Shown: positions 5,400 through 46,441, numbered from the stretch's first letter. The stretch is 64,000 nt of DNA from Gammaproteobacteria bacterium (GCA_028817225.1 JAPPQC010000026.1:8631-72630), one strand, 5' to 3'. Numbers and translations: made by a program. Notes: generated from the sequence alone by a model not told the origin.

Positions 5400-6377
5400 T
5401 CAGGCGACGCGGTCGGGCAGGTCGCCGCCGTCCAGCCACGCGCGCAGGTTTTTCAGCACGCGCCGCCCCATCGCAATCCGCGTCTCGCGCGACGCGCTGC
5501 CGAGGTGCGGCAGCAGCACGGCGTTTTCCAGTTCCAGAAAGCCCGGGTCAAGGTTCGGCTCGCCTTCAAAGACATCCAGGCCGGCGCCGGCGATGACGCC
5601 TTTTTTCAGCGCCTCAATCAGCGCCTGGTTGTCAATGACATCGCCGCGCGCGGTGTTGATCAGGAACGAGCCGGGCTTCATCAGCGCGATGCGCTCGCGG
5701 TTCATCAGGTGGCGGGTCTTGTCGCCGCCGGGGCAGTGCAGCGACAGGAAGTCGGCGTCCGGTATCATCTCTTCAAGCGTCGGGTACGAAGTGGCGCCGA
5801 CTTCGCGCACGGCCTTTTCCGGCGGCTCGAACGGGTCGTGGAACAGTATCTTCATGCCGAAGCCGAAGTGCGCGCGGCGCGCGACGGCGCAGGCGATGCG
5901 CCCGAAGCCGACCAGCCCCAGCGTCTTGCCGGTGACCTTCGTGCCGAGCATGTGCGTCGGGCGCCAGCCGCTCCACGCATTGGCGCGGACATGGCGCTCG
6001 CCCTCGCCGATGCGCCGCGCCGCCGTCAGCATCAGTATCATGGCGATGTCGGCGGTGCAGTCGGTCAGCACTTCGGGCGTGTTGGTTACGCGAATGCCGG
6101 CCTTCTTGGCGGCGTCAAGGTCAATGTGGTTGAAGCCGACGCCGAAGTTGCCGAGAAATTGGCAGCGGATGCCGTCGGCGCCGAGCGTCTCGGCGTCCAT
6201 CGGGTCGGTCACCGTCGGCAGCACGCAGTCGGCGCTGCGCAGCGCGTCCTGCAATTCGCCGCGCGACATCGGGCGGTCTTCCTCGTTGAGGCGCACATCG
6301 TTGCACATCTCGCGCAGTTCGTCCTCTACGACGGACGGCCAGCGCCGCGTGACAATGACGGTCGGTGTTTTGCTCAT
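5400..6377 (-). CDS. hprA: D-isomer-specific 2-hydroxyacid dehydrogenase (hydroxypyruvate/glycerate dehydrogenase by context)
   Basis: NAD Rossmann 'GLVGFGRIACAVARRA' and catalytic R/E/H pattern. Last gene of the serine-cycle cluster. Strong SD 'AGAGGAAA' 6 nt upstream. Confidence 0.8.
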   Translation of the reverse strand: MSKTPTVIVTRRWPSVVEDELREMCNDVRLNEEDRPMSRGELQDALRSADCVLPTVTDPMDAETLGADGIRCQFLGNFGVGFNHIDLDAAKKAGIRVTNTPEVLTDCTADIAMILMLTAARRIGEGERHVRANAWSGWRPTHMLGTKVTGKTLGLVGFGRIACAVARRAHFGFGMKILFHDPFEPPEKAVREVGATSYPTLEEMIPDADFLSLHCPGGDKTRHLMNRERIALMKPGSFLINTARGDVIDNQALIEALKKGVIAGAGLDVFEGEPNLDPGFLELENAVLLPHLGSASRETRIAMGRRVLKNLRAWLDGGDLPDRVA

Positions 6378-6395
6378 GGCGGTTTCCTCTTGCTT

Positions 6396-7286
6396 TTATT
6401 TGCGGTCTTTCAGCACTTTGGCCATCGTCGCGCCCAGTTCCGACGGGTTCGGCGCGATGACGACGCCGGCGTTTTTCAGTATTTCGGTCTTCTCGGCGGC
6501 GCTCTCGCCCTTGCCGGAGACGATGGCGCCGGCGTGGCCCATGCGCCGCCCCTTCGGCGCCGTCAGCCCGGCCACATAGGCGACCACCGGCTTGGTCATG
6601 TAACTGCGGATGTATTCGGCGGCCTCGGCTTCCTGCGGGCCGCCGATTTCGCCGATCATCATCACCGCGCGGGTTTCAAGGTCGGTCTCGAACATCTCGA
6701 GGATGTCGCGGTGCGAACTGCCGTTGATGGGGTCGCCGCCGATGCCGACGCTGGTGGAGATGCCGATGCCAGCGGCCTGCATCTGCGACGCGGCCTCGTA
6801 GCCGAGCGTGCCGGAGCGGGCGACGACGCCGATGTTGCCGGCCTTGTAGATGTGGCCGGGCATGATGCCGAGCATCGCCTTGCCGGGGCTGATGGTGCCG
6901 GCGCAGTTGGGGCCGGTCAGCACCATTTTCTTCTCGCGGCGGTAGCGGCGCATGAAGCGCTTGACGCGCATCATGTCGAGCGCCGGGATGCCGTCGGTGA
7001 TGGCGACGCAGTAGCGAATGCCGCCGTCGGCGGCCTCCATGATGGAGTCGGCGGCGGCGGCGGCGGGCACGAACAGCACGCTGGCCTCGGCGCCGGTCTC
7101 GCGCACCGCGTCCTTGACGGTGTTGAAGACGGGCTTGCCGAGGTGGTCGGCGCCGCCCTTGCCGGGCGTCACGCCGCCGACGATGCGGGTGCCGTATTCC
7201 ATCATCTCCTTGGCGTGGAAGGTGCCGATCTTGCCGGTGAAGCCCTGCACGATGACGCGGGTTTTGTCGTCTAACAGTATGGACAT
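6396..7286 (-). CDS. mtkB: malate--CoA ligase (malate thiokinase) alpha subunit (SucD paralogue)
   Basis: CoA-binding/SucD-type alpha subunit ('VIVQGFTGKIGTFH'). Called Mtk rather than Suc because of the adjacent mcl/sga/hprA. Confidence 0.72.
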   Translation of the reverse strand: MSILLDDKTRVIVQGFTGKIGTFHAKEMMEYGTRIVGGVTPGKGGADHLGKPVFNTVKDAVRETGAEASVLFVPAAAAADSIMEAADGGIRYCVAITDGIPALDMMRVKRFMRRYRREKKMVLTGPNCAGTISPGKAMLGIMPGHIYKAGNIGVVARSGTLGYEAASQMQAAGIGISTSVGIGGDPINGSSHRDILEMFETDLETRAVMMIGEIGGPQEAEAAEYIRSYMTKPVVAYVAGLTAPKGRRMGHAGAIVSGKGESAAEKTEILKNAGVVIAPNPSELGATMAKVLKDRK

Positions 7287-7305
7287 GGTCGTTTCTCCGC
7301 GGCGC

Positions 7306-8472
7306 TCAGCGCCGGCTGGCGGCCTCGACGGCCTTGTGGGCGGCTTCGCCGAGCGTTTCCGTCGAGACCAGCGGCAGGCCGCTGTCTTTCAGCATCTTGC
7401 GCCCGACTTCTACATTGGTGCCGGACAGCCGCACGACCAGCGGCACCTTCAGGTTGATGGACTGGATGGCCTTGATCAGGCCCTCGGCGATCCAGTCGCA
7501 GCGGTTGATGCCGGCGTAGATGTTGACCAGCATCGCCTTGACGCTCTTGTCTTGCAGCACCAGTTCAAACGCCTTGGCGACGCGCTCCGGCGACGCGCCG
7601 CCGCCGATGTCGAGGAAGTTGGCGGGTTCGCCGCCGGCGTGCTTGATCATGTCCATCGTCGCCATCGCCAGGCCGGCGCCGTTGATCATGCAGCCGATGT
7701 TGCCTTCCAGGCCGACATAGCTGAGGTCGTGGTCGGAGGCGCTGGTCTCGCGCGGGTCTTCCTGCGACTTGTCGCGCATCTCGGCGATTTCCGGGTGGCG
7801 GAACAGCGCGTTGTCGTCCACGATCATCTTGGCGTCGAGCGCGATCAGTTCGCCGCCCTTGGTGATGACCAGCGGGTTGACCTCGACGAGGCTGGCGTCG
7901 GACTTGATCAGCGCGCGGTAGCAGCCGGTGATGGCGCGTATCGCGTCTTTCAGCAGGGTTTTCGGGATGTTCAGCGCGAACGCGAGTTCGGCGGCCTGAA
8001 AGCGGCGCAGGTCCACCGCCGGGTCAATCGGGATGCGGACAATCGAGTCGGGGCGCTCGGCGGCGAGTTCCTCGATGGCCATGCCGCCGCTGGCCGAGGC
8101 GACGGCGACGATGCGCTCGCTGGCGCGGTCGAGGACGAAGGCGAGGTAGAGTTCGCGGTCAATGTCGGTGCCGGCCTCGATATAGACCTTCTCGACAATC
8201 TTGCCCTGCGGCCCGGTCTGCACCGTCGCCAGCCGCGTGCCGATCATCTGGTTGGTGGCTTTCTGCACCTCTTCCTCGCTTTTGCACAACTTGACGCCGC
8301 CGGCCTTGCCGCGCGCGCCGGAATGAATCTGCGCCTTGACGACGCACGCCGGCGTGCCCAACTGGTGGTAGCAGGTGGTCGCCTGCGCCGGGCTGTACGC
8401 CAGTTTGCCGGCGGCGATGGGGACGCCGTATTGCTGCAAGATTTCCTTCGCCTGGTATTCGTGTATGTCCAC
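7306..8472 (-). CDS. mtkA: malate--CoA ligase (malate thiokinase) beta subunit (SucC paralogue)
   Basis: 'MDIHEYQAKEIL...VVKAQIHSGARGKAGGVKL' ATP-grasp beta subunit. 'AQIH.GARGKAGG' is MtkA-like rather than SucC-like. Confidence 0.72.
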   Translation of the reverse strand: MDIHEYQAKEILQQYGVPIAAGKLAYSPAQATTCYHQLGTPACVVKAQIHSGARGKAGGVKLCKSEEEVQKATNQMIGTRLATVQTGPQGKIVEKVYIEAGTDIDRELYLAFVLDRASERIVAVASASGGMAIEELAAERPDSIVRIPIDPAVDLRRFQAAELAFALNIPKTLLKDAIRAITGCYRALIKSDASLVEVNPLVITKGGELIALDAKMIVDDNALFRHPEIAEMRDKSQEDPRETSASDHDLSYVGLEGNIGCMINGAGLAMATMDMIKHAGGEPANFLDIGGGASPERVAKAFELVLQDKSVKAMLVNIYAGINRCDWIAEGLIKAIQSINLKVPLVVRLSGTNVEVGRKMLKDSGLPLVSTETLGEAAHKAVEAASRR

Positions 8473-8537
8473 TGGTTTTGTCTCCTGTCGCGGCGGCGCG
8501 CGGGCGCGCCGGGCGTGGTTGGTTCAGCGTCGCCGGT

Positions 8538-9485
8538 TCAGCCTTGCCTGGCCTCGATGACCCGGGCCATCTTGACGACATTCTCGGCCATGCGCGCCGA
8601 CGCCGCGTCAATCATCTTGCCGTCGAGCGACGCCGCGCCGCGGCCTTCGGCGGCGGCTTTTTCCAGTTCCTCGAGGATGCGGCGCGCCTTGTTGACCTCG
8701 GCTTCGGGCGGCGAGAACACCTCGTTGGCGAGCGCGATTTGCGACGGGTGGATTGCCCACTTGCCTTCAATGCCGAGCGCCGCGGCGCGGCGCGCCGCCA
8801 GCGTGTAGCCTTCGGCGTCGTTGAAGTCGCCGAACGGGCCGTCTATCGGGCGCAGGCCGAAGGCGCGGCACGCCACCGTCATCCGCGTGATGGCGGCGTG
8901 CCACTGGTCGCCGGGGTAGTCGGGGTTGAGGCCGCCGATGTTGACGGTGCGCGCGCGGTTGCTGGCGGCGTAGTCGGCGACGCCGAAATGCAGCGCCTCA
9001 AGCCGCGTGCACGGCGACGCCGCGATGCGCTCGACATTGGCCATGCCGAGCGCCGTCTCAATCAGCGCCTCGAGGCCGATGCGGTGGCCGATGCCCTTGG
9101 CCTCCTCGATTTGCGACACCATCACATCCACGGTGTAGAGGTCGTCGGGCACGCCGACTTTCGGCACCAGGATGGTGTCCAGATGCTGTCCGGCCTGTTC
9201 GACGACATCCACGACATCGCGGTACATGTAATGCGTGTCAAGGCCGTTGATTCGCACCGACACGGTCTTGCCGGCGTTCTTCCAGTCAAGCGAGTTGAGC
9301 GCCTCGATGATGTTCTTGCGCGCCTGCAACTTGTCGTCGGGGGCGACGGCGTCTTCCAGGTCGAGGAACACATAGTCGGCGTCGCAGGCAAGCGCCTTTT
9401 CAATCATGCGCGGGTTGGAACCGGGCACCGCCAGTTCGCTGCGCTGCAAGCGCTCGCGCGCCGGTTCAAATCTTGTGTGGCTCAT
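8538..9485 (-). CDS. mcl: L-malyl-CoA/beta-methylmalyl-CoA lyase (HpcH/HpaI-CitE aldolase family)
   Basis: 'YVFLDLEDAVAPDDKLQARKN...' CitE-like TIM-barrel lyase in a serine-cycle context. Confidence 0.8.
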   Translation of the reverse strand: MSHTRFEPARERLQRSELAVPGSNPRMIEKALACDADYVFLDLEDAVAPDDKLQARKNIIEALNSLDWKNAGKTVSVRINGLDTHYMYRDVVDVVEQAGQHLDTILVPKVGVPDDLYTVDVMVSQIEEAKGIGHRIGLEALIETALGMANVERIAASPCTRLEALHFGVADYAASNRARTVNIGGLNPDYPGDQWHAAITRMTVACRAFGLRPIDGPFGDFNDAEGYTLAARRAAALGIEGKWAIHPSQIALANEVFSPPEAEVNKARRILEELEKAAAEGRGAASLDGKMIDAASARMAENVVKMARVIEARQG

Positions 9486-9572
9486 CGCGTGTTCTCCGGC
9501 ACGGCGCGGACGGCGGACTTGCGGGCCTTGCGCGCCGGCAATCTTGTGTGGTTCATCTTTGCGTCCCCTGCG

Positions 9573-10835
9573 TCAGCGCCGCACGATGGCGGATTTGGAC
9601 GCCTTGCGGCGGCCTTTCTTCGGCGCCGGCGCCGCTTTCGCGCTGGACAGTTTGGCTTTCAGCGGCGGCGCCGTGCGGCGGTAGTATTCCAGCGCGGCGC
9701 CGACGCCCGCGCCCGGCTCGATGCGAAGCCCGGCGTCGCGCATCGCCATCTCGGCGGTGGCCAGCGCCGCCAGCACCGAAGTCTCGTTGTGGTCGCCCAG
9801 GTGGCCGATGCGAAACGCCTTGCCGGCCAGCACCGACAGCCCGGCGCCGAGCGACAGGTTGTAGCGGTGGTAGGCGATTTCAATGACATCGCGCGCGTCA
9901 AAGCGCGGCGGCACGCGGATGGCGGTGACGGTGTCGGAATGCCATTTCGGGGCCTTCGCCACCAGTTTCAGGCCCCAGGCGTCCACCGCGCGGCGCACGC
10001 CCTCGGCGAGGCGGTGGTGGCGCTTGAAGATGTTCTCCAGCCCTTCCTCCTCAAGCAGGATTTGCAGCGACCGTTTCAGGCCGTGCAGCAGCGGGATGGA
10101 CGGCGTGTACGGAAAGAAGCCGTCCTTGTTGGCGTTGATGTGGTCCTGGATGTCGAGAAAACACCGCGCGCATTTGGCGGTGTTTCGGGCGCGCAGCGCG
10201 CGGCGGCTGAAACAGACGATGGCCATGCCCGCCGGCAGCATGAAGCCCTTTTGCGAGCCGCTGACGGCGACATCCACTTCCCATTCGTCCATGCGGAAAT
10301 CAATGCTGGCGATGGAACTGACGCCGTCCACATAGAGCATCGCCGGGTGGCCGGCGGCGTTCATCGCGCGGCGCAGGCCGGCGATGTCGCTGGTGACGCC
10401 GGTGGCGGTCTCGTTGTGGCACACCATGACGGCCTTGATCTCGTGCTTGTGGTCGCGTTCAAGGCGGCGTTTGAAACGCTCGACCGGCACGCCTTCGCCC
10501 CACGGCACATCAATCGTCTCGACATCAAGGCCGATGCGAACCGCGAGATCCCACCACAGATGGCTGAACTGGCCGAAGCGCGATGTCAGCACCTTGTCGC
10601 CCGGCGACAGCGTGTTGCTGAGCGCGACTTCCCAGCCCGCGGTGCCGGTGGCCGGAAACAGGAAAGTGCGCCCGCTGCCGGTCTTGAAAACGCGGTTGAC
10701 ATCCTTCAGCATCGGTTTCGTCAGTTTGGCGAAATCGGGCCGGCGGTGGTCTTCCTGCGGAATGTTCATCGCGTTCTGAATCGAGACCGGAATGTTGGTC
10801 GGGCCCGGCACGAACAGGAAATTGCGTCCTGGCAT
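9573..10835 (-). CDS. sga: serine--glyoxylate aminotransferase (class V aminotransferase)
   Basis: 'MPGRNFLFVPGPTNIP', PLP-Lys region 'SGSQKGFMLPAG'. Start placed at the internal ATG at 10835, which has a GAGGA SD. Has an unusual Lys/Arg-rich C-terminal tail. Confidence 0.85.
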   Translation of the reverse strand: MPGRNFLFVPGPTNIPVSIQNAMNIPQEDHRRPDFAKLTKPMLKDVNRVFKTGSGRTFLFPATGTAGWEVALSNTLSPGDKVLTSRFGQFSHLWWDLAVRIGLDVETIDVPWGEGVPVERFKRRLERDHKHEIKAVMVCHNETATGVTSDIAGLRRAMNAAGHPAMLYVDGVSSIASIDFRMDEWEVDVAVSGSQKGFMLPAGMAIVCFSRRALRARNTAKCARCFLDIQDHINANKDGFFPYTPSIPLLHGLKRSLQILLEEEGLENIFKRHHRLAEGVRRAVDAWGLKLVAKAPKWHSDTVTAIRVPPRFDARDVIEIAYHRYNLSLGAGLSVLAGKAFRIGHLGDHNETSVLAALATAEMAMRDAGLRIEPGAGVGAALEYYRRTAPPLKAKLSSAKAAPAPKKGRRKASKSAIVRR

Positions 10836-11001
10836 GGTGGTTTGGTCCTCTGTTGTTGTGACTTGTCGTCGTTGGTTGTGGAATTGAAGCCCGGCTGTCG
10901 CGCCCGCCAAAGGCCGCTGCGGGGGCGCAATTATGCCCCAACAACGGGGTGATGCCAAGCCCCCCCTGATGGGGTGCCCCCGGTGCGGGCGTTGCCGCCG
11001 G

Positions 11002-11784
11002 TCAGCGGCGCACGCCCAGCACGATGCCCTTGGCGGCCAGCATCTCCAGTGTTTGCTGGCCGCCTTGCAGCGCCTTTTCGGTGTCGGCGACCTTCAGGTC
11101 GGCGACGACGCGGCGGATTTGTTCGGCGCCGCTGACATCGCCGCCGTCGGTGATTTTCTCCAGCAGCAGCGCGCTCGGCAGGTTCAGTTCCATGAAGCGG
11201 ACGCGGTCGTCGTCAGCGCGCCACACCACCAGCCAGGTCGGCGTCTTGCCCGGTTCGCGCGGCGTGAAGTGCGGGCCGATGCGGTGCACCGGCCATTCGT
11301 AGGCGTGCTGCCACGCCAGCGGCGACGCCACCGGCACGCCGGCCAGCAGGTCGCCGTCGCGGTCAATGGCGCTGTGGTCGGCGGCGTCGTCGGCGCGCGC
11401 CAGCGCCAGTTCCAGCCATTCATAATGCGCCAGTTCCAGCAGGAACGGCGGGTCGCAGGGGCGCGCCTCGTGTTCGTTTTCCAGGTAATCAATGAATTCG
11501 CGCGAGATTTCGGCGAAGTACGGCGAGTGGCAGCGGTGGCGCGCGTAGAAACGCCGCGCCAGTTCGCGCCAGTCGTCCTTGCGGTAGAGCGTTTTCAGCA
11601 CCGGGAAGGCGTCGGTCAGAAAGCCCTCCATATTGCGGATGAACAGGCCGCGATAGACTTCAAGACGCCGCTCTTCAAGCCCCGGCGGCGGCGGTTTGGA
11701 CGGGTCGCGCAGATGCGCGGCAAACTGGCGCTGAATGGCGCGGAAGTTGCCCGGCGGTGTTTCGGGTGGCGTTTTTTCAGGCAA
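11002..11784 (-). CDS. DUF2063 domain protein (MbnC/BufC-like partner of MNIO enzymes)
   Basis: Typical DUF2063 length and sequence. Immediately downstream of the DUF692 gene. Apparent TTG start. N-terminus built from CCTGAAACA-type repeats ('PEKTPPETPPG'). Confidence 0.7.
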   Translation of the reverse strand: MPEKTPPETPPGNFRAIQRQFAAHLRDPSKPPPPGLEERRLEVYRGLFIRNMEGFLTDAFPVLKTLYRKDDWRELARRFYARHRCHSPYFAEISREFIDYLENEHEARPCDPPFLLELAHYEWLELALARADDAADHSAIDRDGDLLAGVPVASPLAWQHAYEWPVHRIGPHFTPREPGKTPTWLVVWRADDDRVRFMELNLPSALLLEKITDGGDVSGAEQIRRVVADLKVADTEKALQGGQQTLEMLAAKGIVLGVRR

Positions 11785-11878
11785 TGTTTCAGGCGGTGTT
11801 TCGGGCGGCCCTTGCAGGCGTGTTTCAGACGGCGTTTCAGGCGTGTTTCAGCCGCGTTGTTTCAGGCATGTTTCAGGC
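11757..11878. repeat. Degenerate tandem array of about 10 units of (N)GTTTCAGG(C) (minus strand CCTGAAACA) spanning the DUF692 3' end, the intergenic region and the DUF2063 5' end
   Basis: Direct reading: ggtgtttcggg/ttttttcagg/caatgtttcagg/cggtgtttcggg/.../catgtttcagg. Unit length 10-15 nt. Confidence 0.7.
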
Positions 11879-12721
11879 GGCATCCGGCACCGGGTGCTGG
11901 TCTTGCAGTGCGCGGATGCGGTTCACCTCGTCCAGCAGGCGCGGCAGCGGCGGGAAATTGAAGTCGCGCTCCAGCAGCGTCGGCACCGCGCCGAACAGCG
12001 AGTAGGCTTTTTCAAGCAGGCGCCAGACCGGGGCGATGACATCGGCGCCGTGCGTGTCCACAATCAGGTCGTCGGCTTCGTTGTAATGGCCGGCGATGTG
12101 GCACCAGGCGATGCGCTGCGCCGGCAGTTTTTCAAGGTAGTCTTCGGCGTTGAAGTGGAAGTTGACCGAATTGACATAGACATTGTTGACATCCAGCAGC
12201 AGGTCGCAGTCGGCTTCCTCGAGCACGAGGCGGAGGAAGTCGGTTTCGTCCATCTCGCGGCCCGGCGCGAGGTAGGCCGACACATTCTCGACGGCGATGC
12301 GCTGGCCGAGAAAGTCCTGCACATCGCGGATGCGCGCGGCGACATGGCGCGCGGCCTCTTCGGTGAACGGAACCGGCATCAGGTCGTAGAGGTGCGCCTC
12401 GTCGGCGCAGTAGCTCAGGTGCTCGCTGTAACGGCGGATGCGGTGCTCGCGCAGGAAGCCGCGGATGTCGGCCAGCAGTTTCATGTCGAGCGGCGCCGGG
12501 CCGCCGAGCGACAGCGACAGGCCGTGACAGACGAACGGCCAGCGCTCGGTGAAGCGGCGAAAACGCCGTCCCGACGCGCCGCCGACGCCGATCCAGTTCT
12601 CCGGCGCGGTCTCCATGAACGACACCTGCGAAGGCCGCGCGGCCTCGAGTTCGTCCATCAGGCCGCGCCGCAGGCCGAGGCCGGCGCCGGCGACCGGGTA
12701 ACTGCCGGCGGCGTGCGTCAC
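11873..12721 (-). CDS. DUF692 family multinuclear non-heme iron oxidative enzyme (MNIO; MbnB/BufB/TglH-like)
   Basis: N-terminal 'AGAGLGLRR' and TIM-barrel xylose-isomerase-like fold signature. GTG start overlapping the doxX stop (GTGA). Confidence 0.8.
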
Positions 12722-13176
12722 CGCCGGTCGCGCCCGGCGATGATGTGGTCAATGCTGAATTTTCCGGCGCCGCTGAGCAGCAGCGGAACCAGCATCACCA
12801 TGAAAATCAGCGGCAGTTTGTAGCCGTTGTCGCAGACATTGTAGCCGCTGCCGGCGTGCACGCTGGCCCACGCCACCGCGTCGAGTATGATCAGGGCGGC
12901 GGCCCAGAAGCGCGTGCCGAGACCGAGCGCCAGTCCGAGCGCGCCGATGATCTCGACCCAGGTCGCAAGAAACCAGCTGACGGCGACCGGCAGCACATTG
13001 AACGGAAACGGAAAGTCGTCGGCGATGTTGGCGAACCAGTTCTCGCCCTGCAACTTGGCGAGGCCGGCCTCGTAGAATTCCCACGCCAGCAGCAGGCGCA
13101 GCCCCAGCAGCGACAGCCAGGCGCCGATGGAGGACAGGCCGCGGTTCAGCGAGCAGATTGTGCTTTGAAGGCTCAT
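12718..13176 (-). CDS. DoxX family membrane protein
   Basis: Start placed at the internal ATG at 13176 (GGAG SD), giving a 152-aa 4-TM DoxX-like protein. The longer ORF from 13341 is probably an artefact. Confidence 0.75.
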
Positions 13177-13364
13177 CGGAGGCTGCTCCGGGGGCCGGGT
13201 TGGGGGTGGGGTGTGGAAGTCATGGTGGGTCTCCTTTATGTAGGTTGGCCTGACGCTGGTGGGGGTTATTATAACCCCCTCCCTCTCTGTTGCCCGCCGC
13301 GCCCGCAAAGCAGATATAATCGGCGATACGCCAACCCGCAACCCACCTGGAAGGATTATTTATT

Positions 13365-14120: not shown

Positions 14121-14903
14121 CTACCGGCGGGTGGCGGGTGGTCTTCTCTTCAGGTTCCACTTGCAGTCCATTTCCCACCAGTGCTCCGGCACCTCGTTGA
14201 ACTGGCCGTCCTTGAGTATGCCCCAGCCCTTCGCCGCCAGCGTGTAGTTCGCGGACAGCAGCCGGTTGAACGCGGCTTCATGGTTGTCCGGCAGGTCGCT
14301 GTAGCAATTCCGGTATTTGTCTTTTGTCACCTCGCACGAGATGCTGCCGATTCTGCCGCGCCGGATGAGCGGTTCCAGGGTTTTCAGCACCTCAAGATCC
14401 ATTCCCTGTATGTCGCTGATGTAATCGTCAATGTAGTCAACGCCTTGTTGTTCAAGGAAACGGCACAGGTTCACGCACGGCACCCGGATTGTCTTGACGA
14501 TGCGGATTTCATCGTTGAAATTTTCGTCGAGGCGGCCGATTGAAGAGGAGGCGCCGCCATCGTTGCTGGTGATGTTGAATTCAATCTCGCCGTCGCGGTC
14601 GGCGGCGGCGAGATTGAAAAGGCGGACATTCGGGCATGACCGGTATTCCTCCTGAAGTTCCGCGAACAATTCCGGGTTGGCCTCGAACCCGTAGCACACC
14701 CGGTACCTGTGGAACAGCGGCCTGAACGAACGCCCCGTGTGCAGGCCCACATAAACCAGGACATCTTTTCTTCTTTTCGCCAGATTGCGGGTGAAATCCA
14801 TTGCCTGCTTCAGCATTCTTTTGCCGTTCGGCTTTTTGCCCGCGAGCAGCCCGCGCAGATGGAACAGCAGGAAGCCGGCGATGGGAGGGCGGCGGGATTT
14901 CAT
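14121..14903 (-). CDS. FkbM family methyltransferase
   Basis: Methyltransf_21-like sequence. Noticeably lower GC (about 55%) than its surroundings. Start overlaps the pfp stop (ATGA). Confidence 0.7.
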   Translation of the reverse strand: MKSRRPPIAGFLLFHLRGLLAGKKPNGKRMLKQAMDFTRNLAKRRKDVLVYVGLHTGRSFRPLFHRYRVCYGFEANPELFAELQEEYRSCPNVRLFNLAAADRDGEIEFNITSNDGGASSSIGRLDENFNDEIRIVKTIRVPCVNLCRFLEQQGVDYIDDYISDIQGMDLEVLKTLEPLIRRGRIGSISCEVTKDKYRNCYSDLPDNHEAAFNRLLSANYTLAAKGWGILKDGQFNEVPEHWWEMDCKWNLKRRPPATRR

Positions 14904-16228
14904 TTCTTCGGAGGCGCGCCGGTCTGTTGCCGCGGGTTAAGGCGCTCTTTCAGTTTCTTCGGCACCGGCGCGTGCGCCGGACGCGCATAGCACGGCAGGC
15001 CGTTTTTGTAGGGCGGGTAGTCTTCGCCTTCAATCAGCGGGCGCAGGTAGGTTTTGCAGGCGTCGGTGATGCCGAAGCCGTCTTCGCTGATGTAGTCGCG
15101 CGGCAGTTTCTTTTCGCGGTTGGCGACATCCGCCAGCGGCGCGCTGCCGGTGCGCCAGCGGTAGGGGTTGTCGGATTCGCGCACGATGGTCGCCATGACG
15201 GCGTCCTGGCCGGCAAGCGCCATCTCAATGGCGGCCTCGCCGAGCGCGCGCGCCTGCTCGACATCGGTGCGCGAGGCGATGTGGCGCGCCGAGCGTTGCA
15301 GGTAGTCGGCCACCGCCCAGTGGTGTTTGTGGCCGAGTCGTTCGGTCATTAATTGCGCGATGCGCGGCGCGGCGCCGCCGAGTTGGGCGTGGCCGAATGC
15401 GTCGCGCGTGCCGGCCTCCGACAGAAAGCGCCCGCCGGCGTCGCGCACGCCCTCGGAGACGACGATAACGCAATGGCCGTGTTCGGCGACGCAGCGCCCG
15501 GCCTCGCGCACGACGCGCTCCTCGTCGAACGGAATCTCCGGGAACAGAATCAGGTGCGGGGCGTCGCCGTCGCGCTCGCGCGCAAGGCCGGCGGCGGCGG
15601 CGATCCATCCGGCGTGGCGCCCCATCACTTCCAGCACGAAGATCTTCGTCGAGGTCTTCGCCATTGAGGCGACATCAAGCGCCGCCTCGCGCGTCGAGAC
15701 CGCGACATACTTCGCGGTCGTGCCGAAACCCGGGCAGCAGTCGGTCAGCGGCAGGTCGTTGTCCACCGTCTTCGGGATGCCGATGCAGGTCAGCGGGTAG
15801 TCGTAGGCGCGCCCGAGTTGCGAAATCTTGAGCGTCGTGTCCTGCGAGTCGCCGCCGCCGTTGTAGAAGAACCAGCCGATGTCGTGCGCGCGGAAGACAT
15901 CCAGCAGGCGGCGGTATTCGGCCTCGTTTTCCTCGAGGCTTTTCATCTTGTAGCGGCAGGTGCCGAAGGCGCTCGCCGGCGTGTGCGCGAGCGCCGCGAT
16001 GTCGTCGTCGCCGAGGGCGGCGGTGTCCATCAGGTCTTCGTCGAGCGCGCCGAGGATGCCGTTGTGCGCGGCATAGACGCCGCCGATGACATCACCGCGC
16101 CTGCGCGCCGCCGCAATCAGCCCGGCGGCGGTGGCGTTGATAACGGCGGTAACACCGCCCGACTGGGCGTAGAGGGCGTTGCGCCCCGTCGCCGGCCCCC
16201 TGGTTGGCTCCTTTCCCGCTGCGTTCAT
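14900..16228 (-). CDS. pfp: pyrophosphate-dependent (or ATP) 6-phosphofructokinase
   Basis: 'SGGVTAVINATAAGLI', 'IGIPKTVDNDL', 'MGRHAGWIAA' PFK motifs. Start taken at the internal ATG at 16228; 16285 is an alternative. Divergent from adk. Confidence 0.8.
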   Translation of the reverse strand: MNAAGKEPTRGPATGRNALYAQSGGVTAVINATAAGLIAAARRRGDVIGGVYAAHNGILGALDEDLMDTAALGDDDIAALAHTPASAFGTCRYKMKSLEENEAEYRRLLDVFRAHDIGWFFYNGGGDSQDTTLKISQLGRAYDYPLTCIGIPKTVDNDLPLTDCCPGFGTTAKYVAVSTREAALDVASMAKTSTKIFVLEVMGRHAGWIAAAAGLARERDGDAPHLILFPEIPFDEERVVREAGRCVAEHGHCVIVVSEGVRDAGGRFLSEAGTRDAFGHAQLGGAAPRIAQLMTERLGHKHHWAVADYLQRSARHIASRTDVEQARALGEAAIEMALAGQDAVMATIVRESDNPYRWRTGSAPLADVANREKKLPRDYISEDGFGITDACKTYLRPLIEGEDYPPYKNGLPCYARPAHAPVPKKLKERLNPRQQTGAPPKK

Positions 16229-16311
16229 CGGCGCAATTATAATGGACAACCGCAATCCGCTATAATTCGCACGGCCCGCATTCATTGGGTTCGGGCCGGA
16301 AGAACTTTCTG

Positions 16312-26703: not shown

Positions 26704-29028
26704 ATGACATTGAGCACCAAAATACAGGCGCCGGAGGGGCATTCGGTACACCATGTGCCGTGCCCGCACGATTGCCCGGACACCTGCTCCATGCTTGTGA
26801 CGCGCAACGACAAGACCGGCAAGGCGGTGAGGGTGCAGGGCGACCCGAGCCACCCCATCACCAAGGGTTACCTTTGCAACAAGGTCAACCATTATCTTGA
26901 ACTGGTTTACAACGAAAACCGCGTTCTCTATCCGCACAAACGGGTCGGCCCCAAGGGGCCTGGCGCGAAATTCGAGCGCATCGGTTGGGACGAGGCGCTG
27001 GACACGGTGACCGGCGACCTGAAGGAAACCATCGCCCGCCACGGCCCGCAGGCGGTGCAGCCGTATTCGTATTCCGGCACGCTCGGGATGCTCGGCTACT
27101 GGGGCATGGACCAGCGCTTCTGGAACAAGATGAACGCCGCCCGCCTTGAGCAGTCCATCTGCATTTATGCGGCGATGTGGGCCGGCATCTACACCTACGG
27201 CATCGCCAACGGGCCTTCAATTCACGAGGCCTGCGGGGAGGCCGACCTGATCATCCTGTGGGGCGCCAACCTGGTCAGCACCGGCGTGCATGCGATTCCG
27301 TTCATTCAGAAGGCGCGCGCGCGCGGCGCAAAACTGGTCGTCATTGACCCGCGCATCACGCGCACGACGATGATGGCCGACTGGCACCTTCAGCCGCGCC
27401 CGGGCACCGACGGCGCGCTGGCGCTCGGCATGATGAAGATCATCGTGGACGAGGGGCTGCACGACCTGGACTTCCTGAAAGAGCAGACCAAGGGGTGGGA
27501 GGAGTTTCTGGAGAAGAAACTGCCGGATTACCCGGTCGAGCGCGTCGCCGAAATCACCGGGCTTGGCGCCGATGTCATCCGCAAGTTCGCGCTGGAGTAC
27601 GCCGGCACGAAGAAAACCTTCATCCGGGCCAACTACGGGCTGAACCGGCATCAGAACGCCGGCCAGATGTGCCGCGCGATTCTGACGCTGCCGTGCATCA
27701 CCGGCGCGTGGCGCGAGAAGTGCGGCGGCACCGCCTTCGGCACGCTGGAGGAGATGTGGATGAAGTTTCCGCTCGCCAAATTGCAGCGCCCCGACCTCGG
27801 CAACCGCGCCGAGTCGCGCGTTGTCAACATGGTGCAGGTGGGGCGGGCGCTGTCGGAGGACATCGGCGCCGACGATGAAAAACTCGACCCGCCGATCAAG
27901 CATCTGTTTGTGTACAACTCCGACCCGGCCAACTGCGCGCCGAACACCAACAGCGTTCGCAAGGGCCTGATGCGCGACGACCTGTTTGTCACCGTCCACG
28001 AGACCTTCTGGACCGACACCTGCGACTACGCCGACATCGTGCTGCCCGCCGACACGCAACTGGAGCGCATGGATTTGCACGCGGCCTACGGCCACTACTA
28101 TTTCAACATGAACAAGCCGGTCATCGAGCCGCTCGGCGAAAGCGTCTGCAACACCGACTTGTTCAGGAAACTGGCGCAACGCATGGGTTATGTGGAGGAG
28201 GGCGACAACGCCTTCACGCAGACCGACGAGGAGATGGTGCGCGAGATCATAGACGACAAGGACAATCCGCTGATGGAGGGCATCACCTACGAGCAACTCG
28301 AGGAAAACGGCTGGGCCAGGGGAAAGGTTGAGTCGGAGCGGCGTGACTATCTGAAAAACGGCTGGCCAAGCCCCAGCGGCAAGATCGAGATTTACAGCGA
28401 GGCCATCAAGGAGTTGGGGCAGGATCCGCTGCCGACCTACACCCCGGAGGAGGAAGGCCAGGAGGACCACGAGCGCCGCCGGCAATATCCGATCCAGGTG
28501 CTGAGCAGCGCGACGCATTACTTCATCGGCGACTCGTTCCAGTCGGTGCCGCGCCTGCGGGCGATGATGTCGCGCCCGACCGTTGAATTGAGCACGCAGG
28601 ACGCCGCCGAGCGCGGCATCAAGGACGGCGACCTGGTGCGCCTCTACAACGACCGCGGCGAGACCTATTGCCACGCGGTGATTATTGACGGCCTGCTGCC
28701 CGGCGTCTGCGGAACGCAGAAGCAGTTCAAGGGCAGCCACACGGCGGGCGGCGTCAACGCCAACGCGCTCAATTCGCAGCGGCTGACCGATTTCGGCATG
28801 AGCCCGTGTTTTTACTCGGTGCTGGTCGAGATTGAGAAGGCCGAGAACGCCGACCAGTTCACCCGGCAGAAGTTGCTGCAGATGGGCGGCATTGAGGGCT
28901 ATATCCGCGCCTGGCGCAACGACCCCGCCAACGCCGGCGTCGAGGCGAGCGACGAGGAGATCATCGAGTTTGCCAGGAGCCGGCACCCGAGTGTGTTCGC
29001 CGAGGTGCGGAGGTTCGGCAATGAGTGA
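26704..29028 (+). CDS. molybdopterin (bis-MGD) oxidoreductase catalytic subunit with N-terminal 4Fe-4S motif
   Basis: 'CPHDCPDTCS...C' N-terminal Cys cluster. MopB-type molybdopterin dinucleotide-binding domains. 774 aa. Substrate unknown. Confidence 0.8.
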   Translation: MTLSTKIQAPEGHSVHHVPCPHDCPDTCSMLVTRNDKTGKAVRVQGDPSHPITKGYLCNKVNHYLELVYNENRVLYPHKRVGPKGPGAKFERIGWDEALDTVTGDLKETIARHGPQAVQPYSYSGTLGMLGYWGMDQRFWNKMNAARLEQSICIYAAMWAGIYTYGIANGPSIHEACGEADLIILWGANLVSTGVHAIPFIQKARARGAKLVVIDPRITRTTMMADWHLQPRPGTDGALALGMMKIIVDEGLHDLDFLKEQTKGWEEFLEKKLPDYPVERVAEITGLGADVIRKFALEYAGTKKTFIRANYGLNRHQNAGQMCRAILTLPCITGAWREKCGGTAFGTLEEMWMKFPLAKLQRPDLGNRAESRVVNMVQVGRALSEDIGADDEKLDPPIKHLFVYNSDPANCAPNTNSVRKGLMRDDLFVTVHETFWTDTCDYADIVLPADTQLERMDLHAAYGHYYFNMNKPVIEPLGESVCNTDLFRKLAQRMGYVEEGDNAFTQTDEEMVREIIDDKDNPLMEGITYEQLEENGWARGKVESERRDYLKNGWPSPSGKIEIYSEAIKELGQDPLPTYTPEEEGQEDHERRRQYPIQVLSSATHYFIGDSFQSVPRLRAMMSRPTVELSTQDAAERGIKDGDLVRLYNDRGETYCHAVIIDGLLPGVCGTQKQFKGSHTAGGVNANALNSQRLTDFGMSPCFYSVLVEIEKAENADQFTRQKLLQMGGIEGYIRAWRNDPANAGVEASDEEIIEFARSRHPSVFAEVRRFGNE

Positions 29029-30166
29029 TTTTGAGGGGTTTCACGATCCGGCCAGGCATCTCGCCGGGCGGCGGTTGCCGTCGCCCGACAAGACCGTGTA
29101 CGGGTGCCGCGTTGACACCCATCGCGGCAGCGTCAAGAGCGTCAGGAGTCTGACCGACGACACCTATGAACTGGTGGTCGAGTGCGGCGCCGACGCCCAG
29201 GCGGCGCTCAACGCCAAAGCCGGGCAGTATGCGGCGCTGAAGGTGGCCGGCCTCGACAAGCCGCGCTCCTATTCCTTTGCGCGCGCGCCCGAGTGCGAGG
29301 CCGCCGGCCAGAGCACCTTCTTCATCCGCCTGGTTCCGAACGGCAAGTTTTCCGGCTGGCTGTTCGAGAAAGACCGCACCGGCGAGGAGATTGTGCTGAG
29401 CGGCCCGCTCGGCGCCTTCGGCCTTGATCCGTCGTCCGACCGGATGCTGTGCGTCGCCGGCGGCAGCGGCATGAGCGCGATTTTCTCGATACTGGAGCAT
29501 GCGTGCAACGAGCAGGTGGCGCGCGATGCGCTGTTCTTTTACGGCGCCCGCACCCACAAAGACCTGTATTGCCTGGACGAACTCGCCGAGATCGGCAAAC
29601 GCTGGCATTCGGGCCACAGTTTTGAGTTCATCCCGGTTTTGTCGGAGGAGCCGGAAGACAGCGGCTGGGACGGCGCCCGCGGCTTTGTCACCGACTACAT
29701 GAAGAAGACCTGCCTGGACAATGGCAGGATTGATCTCGCGCAATGCAAGGCTTATTTCTGCGGGCCGCCGCCGATGATAGATTCCGGCATCAAGGTGCTG
29801 ATGGACGCGGGCATGTCCGGGTCCGGCATTTTTTACGACAAGTTCGAGGACGCCGCCTCGCCGGCGCCGGTGATAGACAACACGAAGTGCGTGCTGTGCG
29901 ACGAGTGCCTGCTGGTCAAGCCGACGGACAACTGCATCATTGAAGTGTCGAAACTCATCCGCAACAGCGGGCCAGGCTCCGACCGCTACGAGGTGGTCAA
30001 TCCGTCCGAGACCTCCGGGTTGTATTACAATACGCTCTACATAGACGAGGAAAAGTGCATACGCTGCTATGCCTGCGTGGATGCCTGCCCCGCGAACGCC
30101 ATCAGTCCGGACTACGACAAGACGCCGAAGACACTGAGAGGCGTCGCGGCCCGCGGCATTACATAG
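29021..30166 (+). CDS. FAD/NAD(P)-binding (FNR-like) oxidoreductase with C-terminal 2x[4Fe-4S] ferredoxin domain
   Basis: 'RSYSFA' FAD motif, 'GGSGMSA', 'YFCGPPPM', then 'CVLCDEC' and 'CIRCYACVDACP'. Start overlaps the upstream stop by 8 nt. Confidence 0.75.
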   Translation: MSDFEGFHDPARHLAGRRLPSPDKTVYGCRVDTHRGSVKSVRSLTDDTYELVVECGADAQAALNAKAGQYAALKVAGLDKPRSYSFARAPECEAAGQSTFFIRLVPNGKFSGWLFEKDRTGEEIVLSGPLGAFGLDPSSDRMLCVAGGSGMSAIFSILEHACNEQVARDALFFYGARTHKDLYCLDELAEIGKRWHSGHSFEFIPVLSEEPEDSGWDGARGFVTDYMKKTCLDNGRIDLAQCKAYFCGPPPMIDSGIKVLMDAGMSGSGIFYDKFEDAASPAPVIDNTKCVLCDECLLVKPTDNCIIEVSKLIRNSGPGSDRYEVVNPSETSGLYYNTLYIDEEKCIRCYACVDACPANAISPDYDKTPKTLRGVAARGIT

Positions 30167-35328: not shown

Positions 35329-36921
35329 CTACGATTCGCCGTCGAGGACGATGCGAAAGCCGATGCGCGGCGAGTGGAACGATGCCGGCACGCGGTTCTC
35401 GAAGTCGATGCGCGCGGTTTCTTTGCCCGGCAGCGAGAAGTTGCCGCCCTTGACGACGACCGCGTAGCCGTTGCCGGAGACGCCGATGCTGCGGGTCCAC
35501 TCGGAGACATTGCCGCCCATGTTCAGGATGGCGCCGTGCGGCGTGACATCGCCGCGGTTTTCCAGCGCCGGCAGCGGCGCGGTCGCCGGGTTCTCGGCGG
35601 TGGCGGCGCGGCCTTTCTCGTAAAAGGCGCCCCACGGATAGGCGTAGCGCCCGTTGGACGACGCCGCCGCGGTCCATTCGGCGGCGCTCGGCAGGCGCCC
35701 GCCGGCCCATCTTGCGAACGCATAGGCCGACCACCAGTCAATGCCGGTCGCGGGCAGGCGGTCGTCGTCCGTCTCCGGCCACGGCGGCGGGCGGTAGTCG
35801 TGGTCTTTCGGTTCGTTCTCGTTGGCGTAGAAGCCGAGTTGCGCGATCGGGTCTTGCAGAAAACGGCGGTACTGGGCGCGCGTCACCTCGTGGCGCAGAA
35901 TGCGGAAGGTCTGTTGCCGGCGGTCGCGGTCGAACAGTTTCTCGATGACTTCAAGATGCCGGCGCGACAGCGCCGCCAGCAGCCCCGGAATTCTCGCGTC
36001 CTGCGGCAGGCCGAGCGGGTAGGCGCCCGGCGCAATCCGCGCGATTGGCGTGTCTTGCTGCGACCACGGCGGTCTTTGCGGCGCCCGCTCATAGACGCAG
36101 CGAAAACCGACATAGGGCGAGCGGTAGGCCGGCGGCGCGTGGCGGTAGAGCGCGTTCAGGCTGTAGATTTCATACGGGCGGTTGAAGGCATTGCCGCCGT
36201 GCAGGCTCGGGCGCGGGTCGTCGCGCGTTCCCTGCGCCCATTCGGACACATTGCCGCCGAGGTCGTGCAGCCCCTGCGGCGTGTCGAGGCCGGGGTGCAC
36301 GCCGCACCGCTGCGCCGCGTTGAGGCGCGCGTCGAGGTGCGGCCAGCCGGAGGCGTTGAAGGCGCCGCCCCACGGGTAGAGCCGCGCCTCGACGCCGCCG
36401 GCGAGCGCCATCCATTCGCGGCGCGTCGGCAGGCGGCCTCCGGCGGCGCGGCAGTAGGCGTGGGCGTCGTAATAACTGACGCCGTTGGCCGGCGCCGCGA
36501 GACGCCCGCTGATCTTGTGGTCGCGGCTGGCGCTGTCGTAGCTCCAGCCGCCGGGCTGGCCGGGCGCGGCGATGCCCGGCGGGCGGTGCAGCGCCTGCCA
36601 TTTTGAGAACTTGTAGAAATTCTCCTGGCGCACCTCGCAGCGGTCGGCCCAGAGGGTGCTCTGGTTGTGCGTGAACGGCTTCCCGGCCAGCAGGTGGTCG
36701 AACGAGCGGATGTACTCGAAGGCGCGGAGGTTGGACAGCAGAATGCGGTCGAGTCGCCGGCCCTGCGTGTCGCCGCCGCCGGCATTGCCGTCGCCGCCGC
36801 GCACGGCGACGGTGTCGAAGTCGTGGAAGGTGACGCGCAGTTTGTAGTAACTGGCGACGGCGATCGCGAGCACGAAAAGCGCCAGCGCGGTGTTCAGCAA
36901 CGCCGAAAAAACGCGCTTCAT
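35329..36921 (-). CDS. membrane-anchored protein with two tandem FGE-sulfatase (SUMF1/EgtB/PvdO) domains
   Basis: N-terminal TM, then two domains each carrying 'RLP...EW' and 'GGNVSEW' FGE-like motifs. ATGA overlap with the upstream gene. Confidence 0.75.
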   Translation of the reverse strand: MKRVFSALLNTALALFVLAIAVASYYKLRVTFHDFDTVAVRGGDGNAGGGDTQGRRLDRILLSNLRAFEYIRSFDHLLAGKPFTHNQSTLWADRCEVRQENFYKFSKWQALHRPPGIAAPGQPGGWSYDSASRDHKISGRLAAPANGVSYYDAHAYCRAAGGRLPTRREWMALAGGVEARLYPWGGAFNASGWPHLDARLNAAQRCGVHPGLDTPQGLHDLGGNVSEWAQGTRDDPRPSLHGGNAFNRPYEIYSLNALYRHAPPAYRSPYVGFRCVYERAPQRPPWSQQDTPIARIAPGAYPLGLPQDARIPGLLAALSRRHLEVIEKLFDRDRRQQTFRILRHEVTRAQYRRFLQDPIAQLGFYANENEPKDHDYRPPPWPETDDDRLPATGIDWWSAYAFARWAGGRLPSAAEWTAAASSNGRYAYPWGAFYEKGRAATAENPATAPLPALENRGDVTPHGAILNMGGNVSEWTRSIGVSGNGYAVVVKGGNFSLPGKETARIDFENRVPASFHSPRIGFRIVLDGES

Positions 36922-38636
36922 TGCGTGAACGGCAGCCGTCCGAATCTGCGTAAAAGCCCCAGCACCAGCAGCAGCGCGGCGATGCCGCTGGCGAGGAACA
37001 TCTCGCGCTCCTTGCGGTGGCGCACCGGCGGGCGGTAGGTCATCCACGACACTTCGTTGACGCGAATGCCGTTTTCGTCGGTCGCCAGCCGCAGGCGCCC
37101 GTCGCCGTCAAGCGCCGCATAGACGAACGCGATCAGGTAGTCGTCCCTTTCCGGGCTGACGAAGGTCGCGACGCGCCAGCGCCAGGCGCGCGGCTCGCGC
37201 TGCGCCGGCGGCATCAGCACCAGGGTTCCCTGTTTCAGCGGCGTTTGCAGGCCGCGGTAAATCGCCGGGTACAGTCCGAGGCGGCTGGTGACCTCGGCCT
37301 CGCCGGGCAGGAAGGCGAGGGCTTCCTGGCGTTCGTTGCCGGCGAGTTCCGCCTTTTTCAGCGGGCGGTTGCGTTCCAGCGCCAGTTGGTTGTCGGCGAG
37401 GCCGGGCGCCGTTTGCTGCGACACGCGCAAAGGCCGGCCCGCGGAGACGGTTTGCACCTGCTCGCCGAGTTGTTTCAGCAGCGCCAGTTGCGCCGGGTCG
37501 CGCGGCAGTTGCGTCGCCGCCGCCGGGGTCAGCACATCGCGGCGGAAGTCAAACCGTTCCAGCGTCAGGTAGCGGCCGCTGTCGGCGTCGTTTTGCGCCT
37601 TTTCCATGAAACCGAACAGCGCGGCCAGCAGCCGGGTGTAGTCAATCCGGTTTTCGCCGCCGCCGCGCGAGGTCTCGACGATTTCGCTGTTTTTCCTGTC
37701 CGCCGACTTGCTCGCCGACGGCACCGCCGTGCGGAAGCGGATGACCGACGGCGCCTGCCCCTGCTGCGCGCCCGGGTTCATGGCCTGTCCCATCAGTTGC
37801 GACAGCGCGTTGAACATCGCGTCGCTGCGGCGCGACAGTTCGCTTTGCTCGGCGCGCCCGTCGCCGGGCAGGTCGGACGGCGGCGTTTCGGCATCCCACG
37901 CGAGGTCGTCGAACGGGTACGGCTCGCTCGCGGCGTCGCCGGACAGGTCGGTGTCCTGCGGAAACGCCTGCCACGCCTTGCCGCCGTGGCGCGGGCCGTC
38001 GTCGGCCCGGCCCTCGCCGGGTTCGGCGGGCGGCTTCTCCTCATCGGCCCCGTCCGCCGGTTCGCCGCCCGCCGCGGCCCAATCGGCGCCGGGCACCGGC
38101 GCGCCGTCTTCGTAGCCGATGAAGTGCCAGTGCCCGGGCAGCCGCCCGTGGTGCTGGCGCAGGATGGACATCGTGATGTAGAACATCCGCACATCGTAGA
38201 TGTCCACGCGAATCCGCGCCTTCTGCTGCGGCGTCATCGCCGCGAGGAAATGGTCGAAGGCGTTGTTCTGTTTCAGCAGTTCGTCGCGCCGGAACACGCG
38301 CTTGCTGTAATAGTCGCGCACGAAGTCGGTGTGGAGTTCAATGATCGGCATGACCCGGAAGTCGAGCACGCGGTCAAGCGGCGAGTTGTGGTAGTCGTGC
38401 AGCCGCGCCGGCGCCGAGGTCGGCAGGCCGTTCATGACCACCGATGTCGCCAGGTCGCGGCTGAGCAGCACCGAGATGTCCTCGACCTCGGCCAGGCGCT
38501 CCTGCTCCTGCGCGTGCTTGGTCGCAATCGTGATCACAATCAGGATGATGATGATGGCGACGCTGTTGGCGAGGATGTCGGCCAGCGCGATGCCGGCGAA
38601 ACCCGGGAAAAGACGCGGCTGTGCGCGGCTGCTCAT
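36918..38636 (-). CDS. hypothetical 572-aa protein with ExbD/TolR-like N-terminal TM (Asp-containing), long acidic linker and C-terminal TM
   Basis: 'FAGIALADILANSVAIIIILIVITIA' resembles the ExbD/TolR TM segment. Low-complexity D/E/P/G linker. Ends with a hydrophobic helix. Confidence 0.55.
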   Translation of the reverse strand: MSSRAQPRLFPGFAGIALADILANSVAIIIILIVITIATKHAQEQERLAEVEDISVLLSRDLATSVVMNGLPTSAPARLHDYHNSPLDRVLDFRVMPIIELHTDFVRDYYSKRVFRRDELLKQNNAFDHFLAAMTPQQKARIRVDIYDVRMFYITMSILRQHHGRLPGHWHFIGYEDGAPVPGADWAAAGGEPADGADEEKPPAEPGEGRADDGPRHGGKAWQAFPQDTDLSGDAASEPYPFDDLAWDAETPPSDLPGDGRAEQSELSRRSDAMFNALSQLMGQAMNPGAQQGQAPSVIRFRTAVPSASKSADRKNSEIVETSRGGGENRIDYTRLLAALFGFMEKAQNDADSGRYLTLERFDFRRDVLTPAAATQLPRDPAQLALLKQLGEQVQTVSAGRPLRVSQQTAPGLADNQLALERNRPLKKAELAGNERQEALAFLPGEAEVTSRLGLYPAIYRGLQTPLKQGTLVLMPPAQREPRAWRWRVATFVSPERDDYLIAFVYAALDGDGRLRLATDENGIRVNEVSWMTYRPPVRHRKEREMFLASGIAALLLVLGLLRRFGRLPFTQ

Positions 38637-39163: not shown

Positions 39164-39168
39164 CGGCG

Positions 39169-42965: not shown

Positions 42966-43042
42966 GGGTCTGTAGCTCAGCTGGTTAGAGCACACCCCTG
43001 ATAAGGGTGAGGTCGGTGGTTCAAGTCCACCCAGACCCACCA
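42966..43042 (+). tRNA. tRNA-Ile (anticodon GAT)
   Basis: Near-identical to E. coli tRNA-Ile(GAU). Anticodon loop CU-GAU-AA. Confidence 0.92.
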
Positions 43043-43060
43043 CGATGCACCGCGATGCGC

Positions 43061-43307: not shown

Positions 43308-46192
<2,885 letters not shown>

Positions 46193-46423: not shown

Positions 46424-46441
46424 TAACTCATCTGGAGGAGA

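Follow-up and report, generated by a model that had tools for sequence, protein, structure and literature searches.

Organisation of the locus

A stretch of DNA of 64,000 nucleotides from an assembly labelled Gammaproteobacteria bacterium (GCA_028817225.1 JAPPQC010000026.1:8631-72630), referred to here as the window, contains a run of five genes in the order sga-mcl-mtkA-mtkB-hpr whose relationship to the serine cycle is the subject of this analysis. The window has a high GC content (~0.67), and open reading frame (ORF) calling filtered by the GC content of third codon positions (GC3) resulted in an unambiguous gene map. The five genes are intact and co-oriented and occupy exactly positions 5400-10835 on the minus strand. 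The first, sga (9573..10835), has an ATG start and a GAGGA ribosome-binding site and encodes a class-V aminotransferase of the serine--glyoxylate aminotransferase type of 420 amino acids (aa). This is followed by mcl (8538..9485), encoding a malyl-CoA lyase of the HpcH/CitE type (315 aa; Pfam HpcH_HpaI and C-C_Bond_Lyase), and by mtkA (7306..8472) and mtkB (6396..7286), which encode the ATP-grasp beta subunit (388 aa; GTG start) and the alpha subunit (296 aa; Pfam CoA_binding and Ligase_CoA) of malate--CoA ligase, or malate thiokinase. The last gene, hpr (5400..6377), encodes a D-2-hydroxyacid dehydrogenase of the hydroxypyruvate/glyoxylate reductase group (325 aa; Pfam 2-Hacid_dh and 2-Hacid_dh_C) and is separated at its end by 1 base from the stop codon of purA, which is transcribed towards it. 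The first-pass annotation of this DNA had reported five consecutive co-oriented genes here and had named all five, and both the ORF map and the family assignments bear this out. With E-values down to 1e-193 and the same five-gene order in approximately 30 independent genomes, the operon lies far beyond what chance could produce.

The intergenic gaps from sga to hpr are 87, 65, 19 and 18 nucleotides (nt), and a GGAG-type ribosome-binding site stands in front of each of the five genes. A candidate sigma-70-like promoter (TTGGCA-17-CATAAT; 10930..10958, minus strand) is predicted approximately 95 nt ahead of the start codon of sga; it agrees with the consensus at 10 of 12 positions and is the sole sigma-70-like site on the minus strand between 5200 and 11200. 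An Rfam search of the sga leader returned no riboswitch or other RNA element and a terminator scan returned none on the minus strand. The GC3 of the operon (0.82-0.92) resembles that of the rest of the genome. Recent horizontal acquisition of the operon was considered on compositional grounds and set aside, there being no GC or GC3 anomaly and no hint of transfer.

Identity of the encoded enzymes

Malate thiokinase shares its fold and domain architecture (ATP-grasp_2 and Ligase_CoA in one subunit, CoA_binding and Ligase_CoA in the other) with succinyl-CoA synthetase, SucCD, and the phosphohistidine loop is conserved. The comparison of MtkA with SucC that had been proposed in the first-pass annotation came out in favour of MtkA. 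The protein scored 641 bits against NF010647, the equivalog model for the malate--CoA ligase beta subunit, which is above the cut-off of 604; on the SucC model it scored 549 bits, 92 bits lower, yet still over the cut-off of that model. A small neighbour-joining tree placed it among MtkAs encoded next to mcl (from Methylomonas, Methylobacter, Hyphomicrobium, Aminobacter, Mesorhizobium, Roseovarius and Ruegeria) and not with the SucCs of E. coli and Francisella, and its identity to the former was 61-69% as opposed to 48-49% to the latter. Sixteen columns of the alignment distinguish these MtkAs from the SucCs of the two species, and in 15 of them the window protein has the MtkA state, for example NIYAGINRCD where SucC has NIFGGIVRCD. 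MtkB scored 426 bits on a SucD-type alpha subunit model, over the SucD cut-off, in a library that holds no MtkB-specific model; its phosphohistidine loop, GHAGA, is retained at residue 250, and the mtkB products of related loci share 67-84% identity with it. The NCBI pipeline already labels the window MtkA protein as malate--CoA ligase.

It could be argued from the two SucC and SucD scores that mtkAB is simply the succinyl-CoA synthetase of the tricarboxylic acid (TCA) cycle of this organism and that the cluster is no pathway unit. We consider this very improbable. The MtkA-specific equivalog, the identities and the signature columns all speak against it, and the gene partners of mtkAB in the window are mcl, sga and hpr, not sucAB, with the pair always lying between mcl and hpr. 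Best matches to the SucC and SucD equivalogs together with linkage to sucAB or sdh, as would be expected of a SucCD pair, were not found.

The closest match of Mcl in the PDB was the malyl-CoA/beta-methylmalyl-CoA lyase of Methylobacterium (M. extorquens; 5ugr, 418 bits over residues 1-309), followed by Rhodobacter Mcl (4l9y, 314 bits), and its scores were under the equivalog cut-offs of the NCBIfam models for CitE, RipC and haloarchaeal Mcl. Sga belongs to the Pfam family Aminotran_5, with a serine--glyoxylate aminotransferase as its top PDB match (6pk1, 432 bits over residues 2-392), and is 59-68% identical to the sga products that adjoin hpr in Methylobacter and Methylomonas loci. The amino donor is not a property that can be read from the sequence and the role as serine--glyoxylate aminotransferase is accordingly a predicted one. 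The best NCBIfam model for this protein was that of BhcA (592 bits) in a library without an Sga-specific model, which raises the alternative that the aminotransferase is BhcA and that glycolate or glyoxylate is assimilated here through the beta-hydroxyaspartate cycle, of which the cluster would be part. We attach almost no credence to this alternative, as the score is under the model cut-off of 650 and gene content contradicts it, with bhcB, bhcC and bhcD not found in the operon or the window and the cluster lacking genes for a dehydratase, an aldolase and an iminosuccinate reductase.

The C-terminus of Sga (9573-9670) is a basic tail of approximately 30 aa that is rich in Lys, Ala and Pro. 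Basic tails of 15-35 residues, such as ...KKGRRKASKSAIVRR or ...KKKKKKK, were seen in the window lineage and in a clade of marine Gammaproteobacteria (loci L007-L013, L019, L022, L026, L037, L039 and L049); the Sga proteins of methanotrophs and Alphaproteobacteria are without the basic tail.

Hpr matched glyoxylate reductases, archaeal ones among them, in the PDB with 231-248 bits and the D-glycerate dehydrogenase of Hyphomicrobium (1gdh) with 221 bits, and reached no NCBIfam equivalog cut-off. Its conserved position in the operon, where it is the last gene in approximately 30 loci, suggests that hydroxypyruvate would be its substrate.

The operon in other genomes

The species genomes of GTDB were scanned with MtkA, giving at least 80 loci with an MtkA of 61-70% identity. 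Gene order at the 80 loci was determined by tblastn with the window proteins, and flanking ORFs were clustered and representatives annotated. The identical order sga-mcl-mtkA-mtkB-hpr was found in approximately 30 of the 80, from both Gamma- and Alphaproteobacteria, and a gene for phosphoenolpyruvate (PEP) carboxylase, Ppc, lies directly downstream in 21 loci.

An extended form of the cluster is present in 8-12 loci of marine Gammaproteobacteria (L009-L013, L019, L022, L026, L037, L039, L049 and L060; for example 4774-16810 of L037). Upstream of the core these loci encode 5-formyl-tetrahydrofolate cyclo-ligase (MTHFS), an Ftr/FhcD-like formyltransferase and FolD, and downstream of hpr they encode Ppc followed by an MtdA-like dehydrogenase with an Mpt_N domain. 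The window lineage has in common with them the five-gene core and its order, the Lys-rich Sga tail and an MtkA of 63-70% identity, but its locus lacks the upstream genes for one-carbon (C1) transfer, the downstream ppc and the MtdA-like gene, and the core lies beside purA-hisZ-hflKC instead. The marine organisms are uncultured, with GC contents of 0.31-0.60, and some are represented by closed genomes of 1.3-2.6 Mb. Their FhcD-like formyltransferase is over the NCBIfam cut-off (311 against 297 bits) and stands alone, no other fhc gene being present in the flanks of L037 that were examined; it is very abundant, with at least 75% identity across more than 120 database clusters.

The same five enzymes are those of the serine-cycle clusters of methylotrophs such as Methylobacterium/Methylorubrum extorquens, Hyphomicrobium and the type I methanotrophs. 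M. extorquens has them in the clusters sga-hprA-mtdA-fch and mtkA-mtkB-ppc-mcl, and type I methanotrophs have a partial serine pathway. The window genes are orthologues of these, and in the Hyphomicrobium, Methylobacter, Methylomonas and Aminobacter loci MtkA is 61-66% and Mcl 70-79% identical to the window proteins. The arrangements differ in that all five genes form one operon in the window, whereas in the methanotroph (Methylococcales) loci hpr-sga is divergent from mcl-mtkAB; glyA and a glycerate 2-kinase gene lie close to these genes in Methylococcaceae loci, whereas mtdA, fch, ppc, glyA and gck are all missing from the window locus. The host of the window operon differs too, being uncultured and having relatives with closed genomes of approximately 2 Mb.

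Host lineage and conservation of the operon

The exact MtkA protein is found on 23 metagenomic contigs or contigs of metagenome-assembled genomes, including GCA_028816675.1 (again labelled 'Gammaproteobacteria bacterium') and a contig of 112.5 kb that is collinear with the window. Sample labels such as ROBB21, taken together with the nearest named family, suggest that the host, an uncultured gammaproteobacterium, is probably sponge-associated. That family, among the matches listed, is Ca. Oxydemutatoraceae (Chromatiales), whose members are sponge symbionts that have been described as sulfur-oxidising mixotrophs (PMC11685487). The operon has the same order there, with identities to the window of 83% for Mcl, 81% for MtkB, 75% for Hpr, 72% for Sga and 67% for MtkA, and the family was sister to the window lineage in the neighbour-joining tree with weak support (68%). 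It differs from the window lineage in having ppc after hpr, in its flanks of restriction and defence genes, in the insertion site and in GC content (0.55 as opposed to 0.67). Oxydemutator is reportedly named in a taxonomic paper by Nguyen et al. 2023.

Closer relatives are represented by three closed chromosomes of 1.83, 2.38 and 2.05 Mb, which encode MtkAs of 91%, 85% and 78% identity, respectively. In the same order, their ENA contigs are ERZ22155170 ctg25966c, ERZ25068400 ctg22198 and ERZ25072196 ctg194515. All three carry the same operon at the same site, beside purA-hisZ-DUF2065-hflC-hflK. The ratio of non-synonymous to synonymous substitution rates (dN/dS) for the operon against these relatives is 0.06-0.19, whereas purA and hisZ have higher values, and in the 2.05-Mb genome the operon genes retain 71-83% amino-acid identity as opposed to 50-58% for purA and hisZ. 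The operon is thus under stronger purifying selection than its housekeeping neighbours, and this low dN/dS and high conservation make clear that the module is functional and important in these small genomes.

Function of the module

We somewhat favour the reading that the five genes supply an uncultured, small-genome gammaproteobacterium, probably an associate of sponges, with the enzymes particular to the serine cycle. MtkAB would activate malate to malyl-CoA at the expense of ATP and Mcl would split this into acetyl-CoA and glyoxylate. Sga would then transaminate glyoxylate to glycine with serine as the donor, which leaves hydroxypyruvate, and Hpr would pull this reaction by reducing hydroxypyruvate to D-glycerate, while the housekeeping serine hydroxymethyltransferase, GlyA, would reload glycine with methylene-tetrahydrofolate. 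The net effect would be to bring a folate-bound C1 unit into C3 metabolism and to obtain acetyl-CoA from malate. It is established enzymology that the joining of a glyoxylate-producing step (Mcl) to a glyoxylate-consuming step (Sga) is characteristic of the serine-cycle direction, and because the operon joins the Mcl branch to an Sga that would be pulled by hydroxypyruvate reduction, flux probably runs in that direction. The C1 source may be formate or host-derived methyl groups, and GlyA, a glycerate kinase and a C3 carboxylase would be encoded elsewhere in the genome. The strongest evidence for a serine-cycle unit fed by folate-bound C1 is guilt by association, namely the FolD, MTHFS, Ftr/FhcD-like, Ppc and MtdA-like genes that flank the operon in its relatives. 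With this support the capacity for C1 or C2 assimilation suggested in the first-pass annotation is reasonable, although the part of that argument which drew on a neighbouring phosphofructokinase is not sustained (see below).

A number of observations weigh against this reading. Hpr is not separable from glyoxylate reductase by sequence. The serine-cycle core had been called complete, which goes too far: neither glyA, nor genes for glycerate kinase (gck), enolase, PEP carboxylase (ppc) or malate dehydrogenase were found in the window, nor were genes for supply of methylene-tetrahydrofolate (mtdA, fch, ftfL, folD, C1 dehydrogenases including formate dehydrogenase, and demethylases) or for oxidation of methane, methanol or methylamine. 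A molybdopterin oxidoreductase at 26704-29028 was considered as a formate dehydrogenase, for which there was no support, as it is an unclassified member of the dimethyl sulphoxide (DMSO)-reductase family that reached no NCBIfam equivalog cut-off. At its locus this lineage has neither the ppc nor the C1-transfer genes by which the operon is flanked in relatives. A search with the Ppc of Oxydemutatoraceae that covered the best 120 matches, down to approximately 48% identity, returned no protein encoded by the lineage's three closed genomes, and likewise missed a known relative of 51% identity; a similar search with the Ftr-like protein also covered the best 120 matches, which extended down to 75% identity only. 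The gene identities appear firm, but the use of the module for C1 compounds is a predicted one.

That named relatives have been described as sulfur-oxidising mixotrophs makes glyoxylate salvage a realistic, albeit unlikely, alternative. The operon would then serve the salvage of glyoxylate or phosphoglycolate in a CO2-fixing mixotroph that assimilates no external C1 compound: Sga and Hpr would act as in a plant-like C2 cycle, converting glyoxylate to glycine and serine via hydroxypyruvate to glycerate, and Mcl and MtkAB would condense surplus glyoxylate with acetyl-CoA to malate. Such a role is in agreement with the best solved homologue of Sga, 6pk1, being a plant photorespiratory enzyme, with the highest scores of Hpr being against glyoxylate reductases, with the lack of C1-oxidation genes in the window and with models of Ca. 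Oxydemutatoraceae and other sponge Gammaproteobacteria as sulfur-oxidising, CO2-fixing mixotrophs (PMC11685487). Against this, the operon is linked in relatives to folD, MTHFS, ppc and MtdA-like genes and not to RuBisCO, gph or glcDEF, its orthologues are the serine-pathway genes of methylotrophs, and RuBisCO, prk, gph and glycolate oxidase genes are found neither in the window nor in any fetched flank. Mcl and MtkAB might also run in reverse in C2 anaplerosis, from acetyl-CoA and glyoxylate through malyl-CoA to malate and ATP, in place of malate synthase. This would allow the cells to grow on acetyl-CoA that derives from taurine, hypotaurine or fatty acids, with Sga and Hpr balancing the pools of glyoxylate, glycine and serine. 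Mcl and ligases of the succinyl-CoA synthetase type are known to be reversible, and ppc is absent from the locus in this lineage. Gammaproteobacterial symbionts of sponges are moreover predicted to use hypotaurine and laurate, two sources of acetyl-CoA, for growth (PMC11685487). We nevertheless regard this possibility as quite improbable, since it explains neither the invariant co-transcription with sga and hpr nor the linkage to folD, mtdA-like and ppc genes in relatives, and requires an isocitrate lyase, of which none was seen in the window.

If the serine-cycle reading is followed, a further and more speculative proposal can be made, to which we would give only limited weight: that this streamlined (1.8-2.4 Mb) symbiont lineage is a cryptic C1 assimilator, drawing formate-derived or host methyl carbon into biomass by means of the five-gene core. 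The core would have become detached from ppc and from dedicated C1-transfer genes, malate would come from the TCA cycle, and the host methyl sources would be the demethylation of betaine, choline, creatine and dimethylsulphoniopropionate. Were this so, an animal symbiont would have an open and minimal 'serine shunt' in place of the classical closed cycle.

Both the enzyme set and the operon arrangement are well known; what is newly noted is their occurrence in a streamlined, probably sponge-associated gammaproteobacterial lineage, and no paper linking this lineage to the serine cycle was found in the open-access literature searched. Since the enzymes and the operon type are familiar and NCBI labels MtkA correctly, the value of the finding is ecological and annotational and not mechanistic. 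If the module is active, a widespread and apparently sponge-associated lineage would be able to feed central metabolism with glyoxylate or with C1 units bound to folate. This would add a route of carbon exchange between host and symbiont, by way of methylated osmolytes, formate or glycine and serine, of which we found no discussion in those open-access papers that were searched.

Other features of the window

A pyrophosphate (PPi)-type phosphofructokinase gene, pfp, is located at 14900-16285 on the minus strand, 4.07 kb from sga. Its product clears the cut-off of NF010675 (273) with 613 bits, which agrees with the first-pass annotation of such an enzyme approximately 4 kb from the operon. The same annotation had called it typical of some methanotrophs; as a marker of methanotrophy it does not stand. 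The best PDB matches are 3k2q and 3hno (605-617 bits), the closest solved homologues coming from Marinobacter and Nitrosospira, so that membership of this subfamily says nothing on methanotrophy. Five unrelated genes separate it from the operon (an FkbM-type methyltransferase gene, ompA and a DoxX/MbnB-like/HvfC-like cluster), and the two are no longer neighbours in L088, L090 and L091, which represent the relatives with 78% and 85% MtkA identity and Oxydemutatoraceae. The link between this gene and the operon is coincidental and adds nothing to the argument for methylotrophy.

The cluster directly upstream of the operon (11002-13341, minus strand) is a trio encoding DoxX, a protein of the MbnB/TglH/ChrH family (DUF692) and an HvfC-like protein (DUF2063), and recurs in L087 and L090, relatives at the genus level. 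Some variation between strains was seen in this region. A gene for a DUF4760 protein of 176 aa separates hvfC from sga in L001, L002, L003 and L005 and is absent from the window (10836-11001), L004 and L006. The window, L003 and L004 have the FkbM-type methyltransferase gene adjoining pfp (14121-14903), which L001, L002 and L006 lack.

The other 58 kb of the window are given over to housekeeping genes, including hflKC, hisZ, purA, adk, lptABC, argG, folE, exbBD-tonB, lepB-rnc-era-recO-pdxJ, dapDE, map and rpsB-tsf-frr as well as 23S and 5S rRNA genes, together with a few unclassified genes. Adjoining folE, at 26704-30166, the gene for a DMSO-reductase-family molybdoenzyme (774 aa) is followed by one for an FNR-like FAD/NAD reductase with a C-terminal 4Fe-4S domain. 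A run of four genes on the minus strand at 35329-40215 begins with one for a protein with an FGE-sulfatase domain (572 aa); the products of the other three (572, 176 and 348 aa) have no Pfam match, and those of 572 and 348 aa no NCBIfam match.

The rRNA genes are unlinked (42966-51676). Genes for tRNA-Ile and tRNA-Ala precede a full-length 23S rRNA gene (43308-46191) that has no 16S rRNA gene upstream, the place of the latter being taken by genes for a Na/Ca exchanger and a KpsF-like protein. The 5S rRNA gene (51561-51676) is 5.4 kb downstream of the 23S gene, from which it is separated by four genes encoding a GSDH-type dehydrogenase, a cytochrome c, an SRPBCC protein and a TonB-dependent receptor. 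This 23S-5S gene neighbourhood is repeated on independent contigs.

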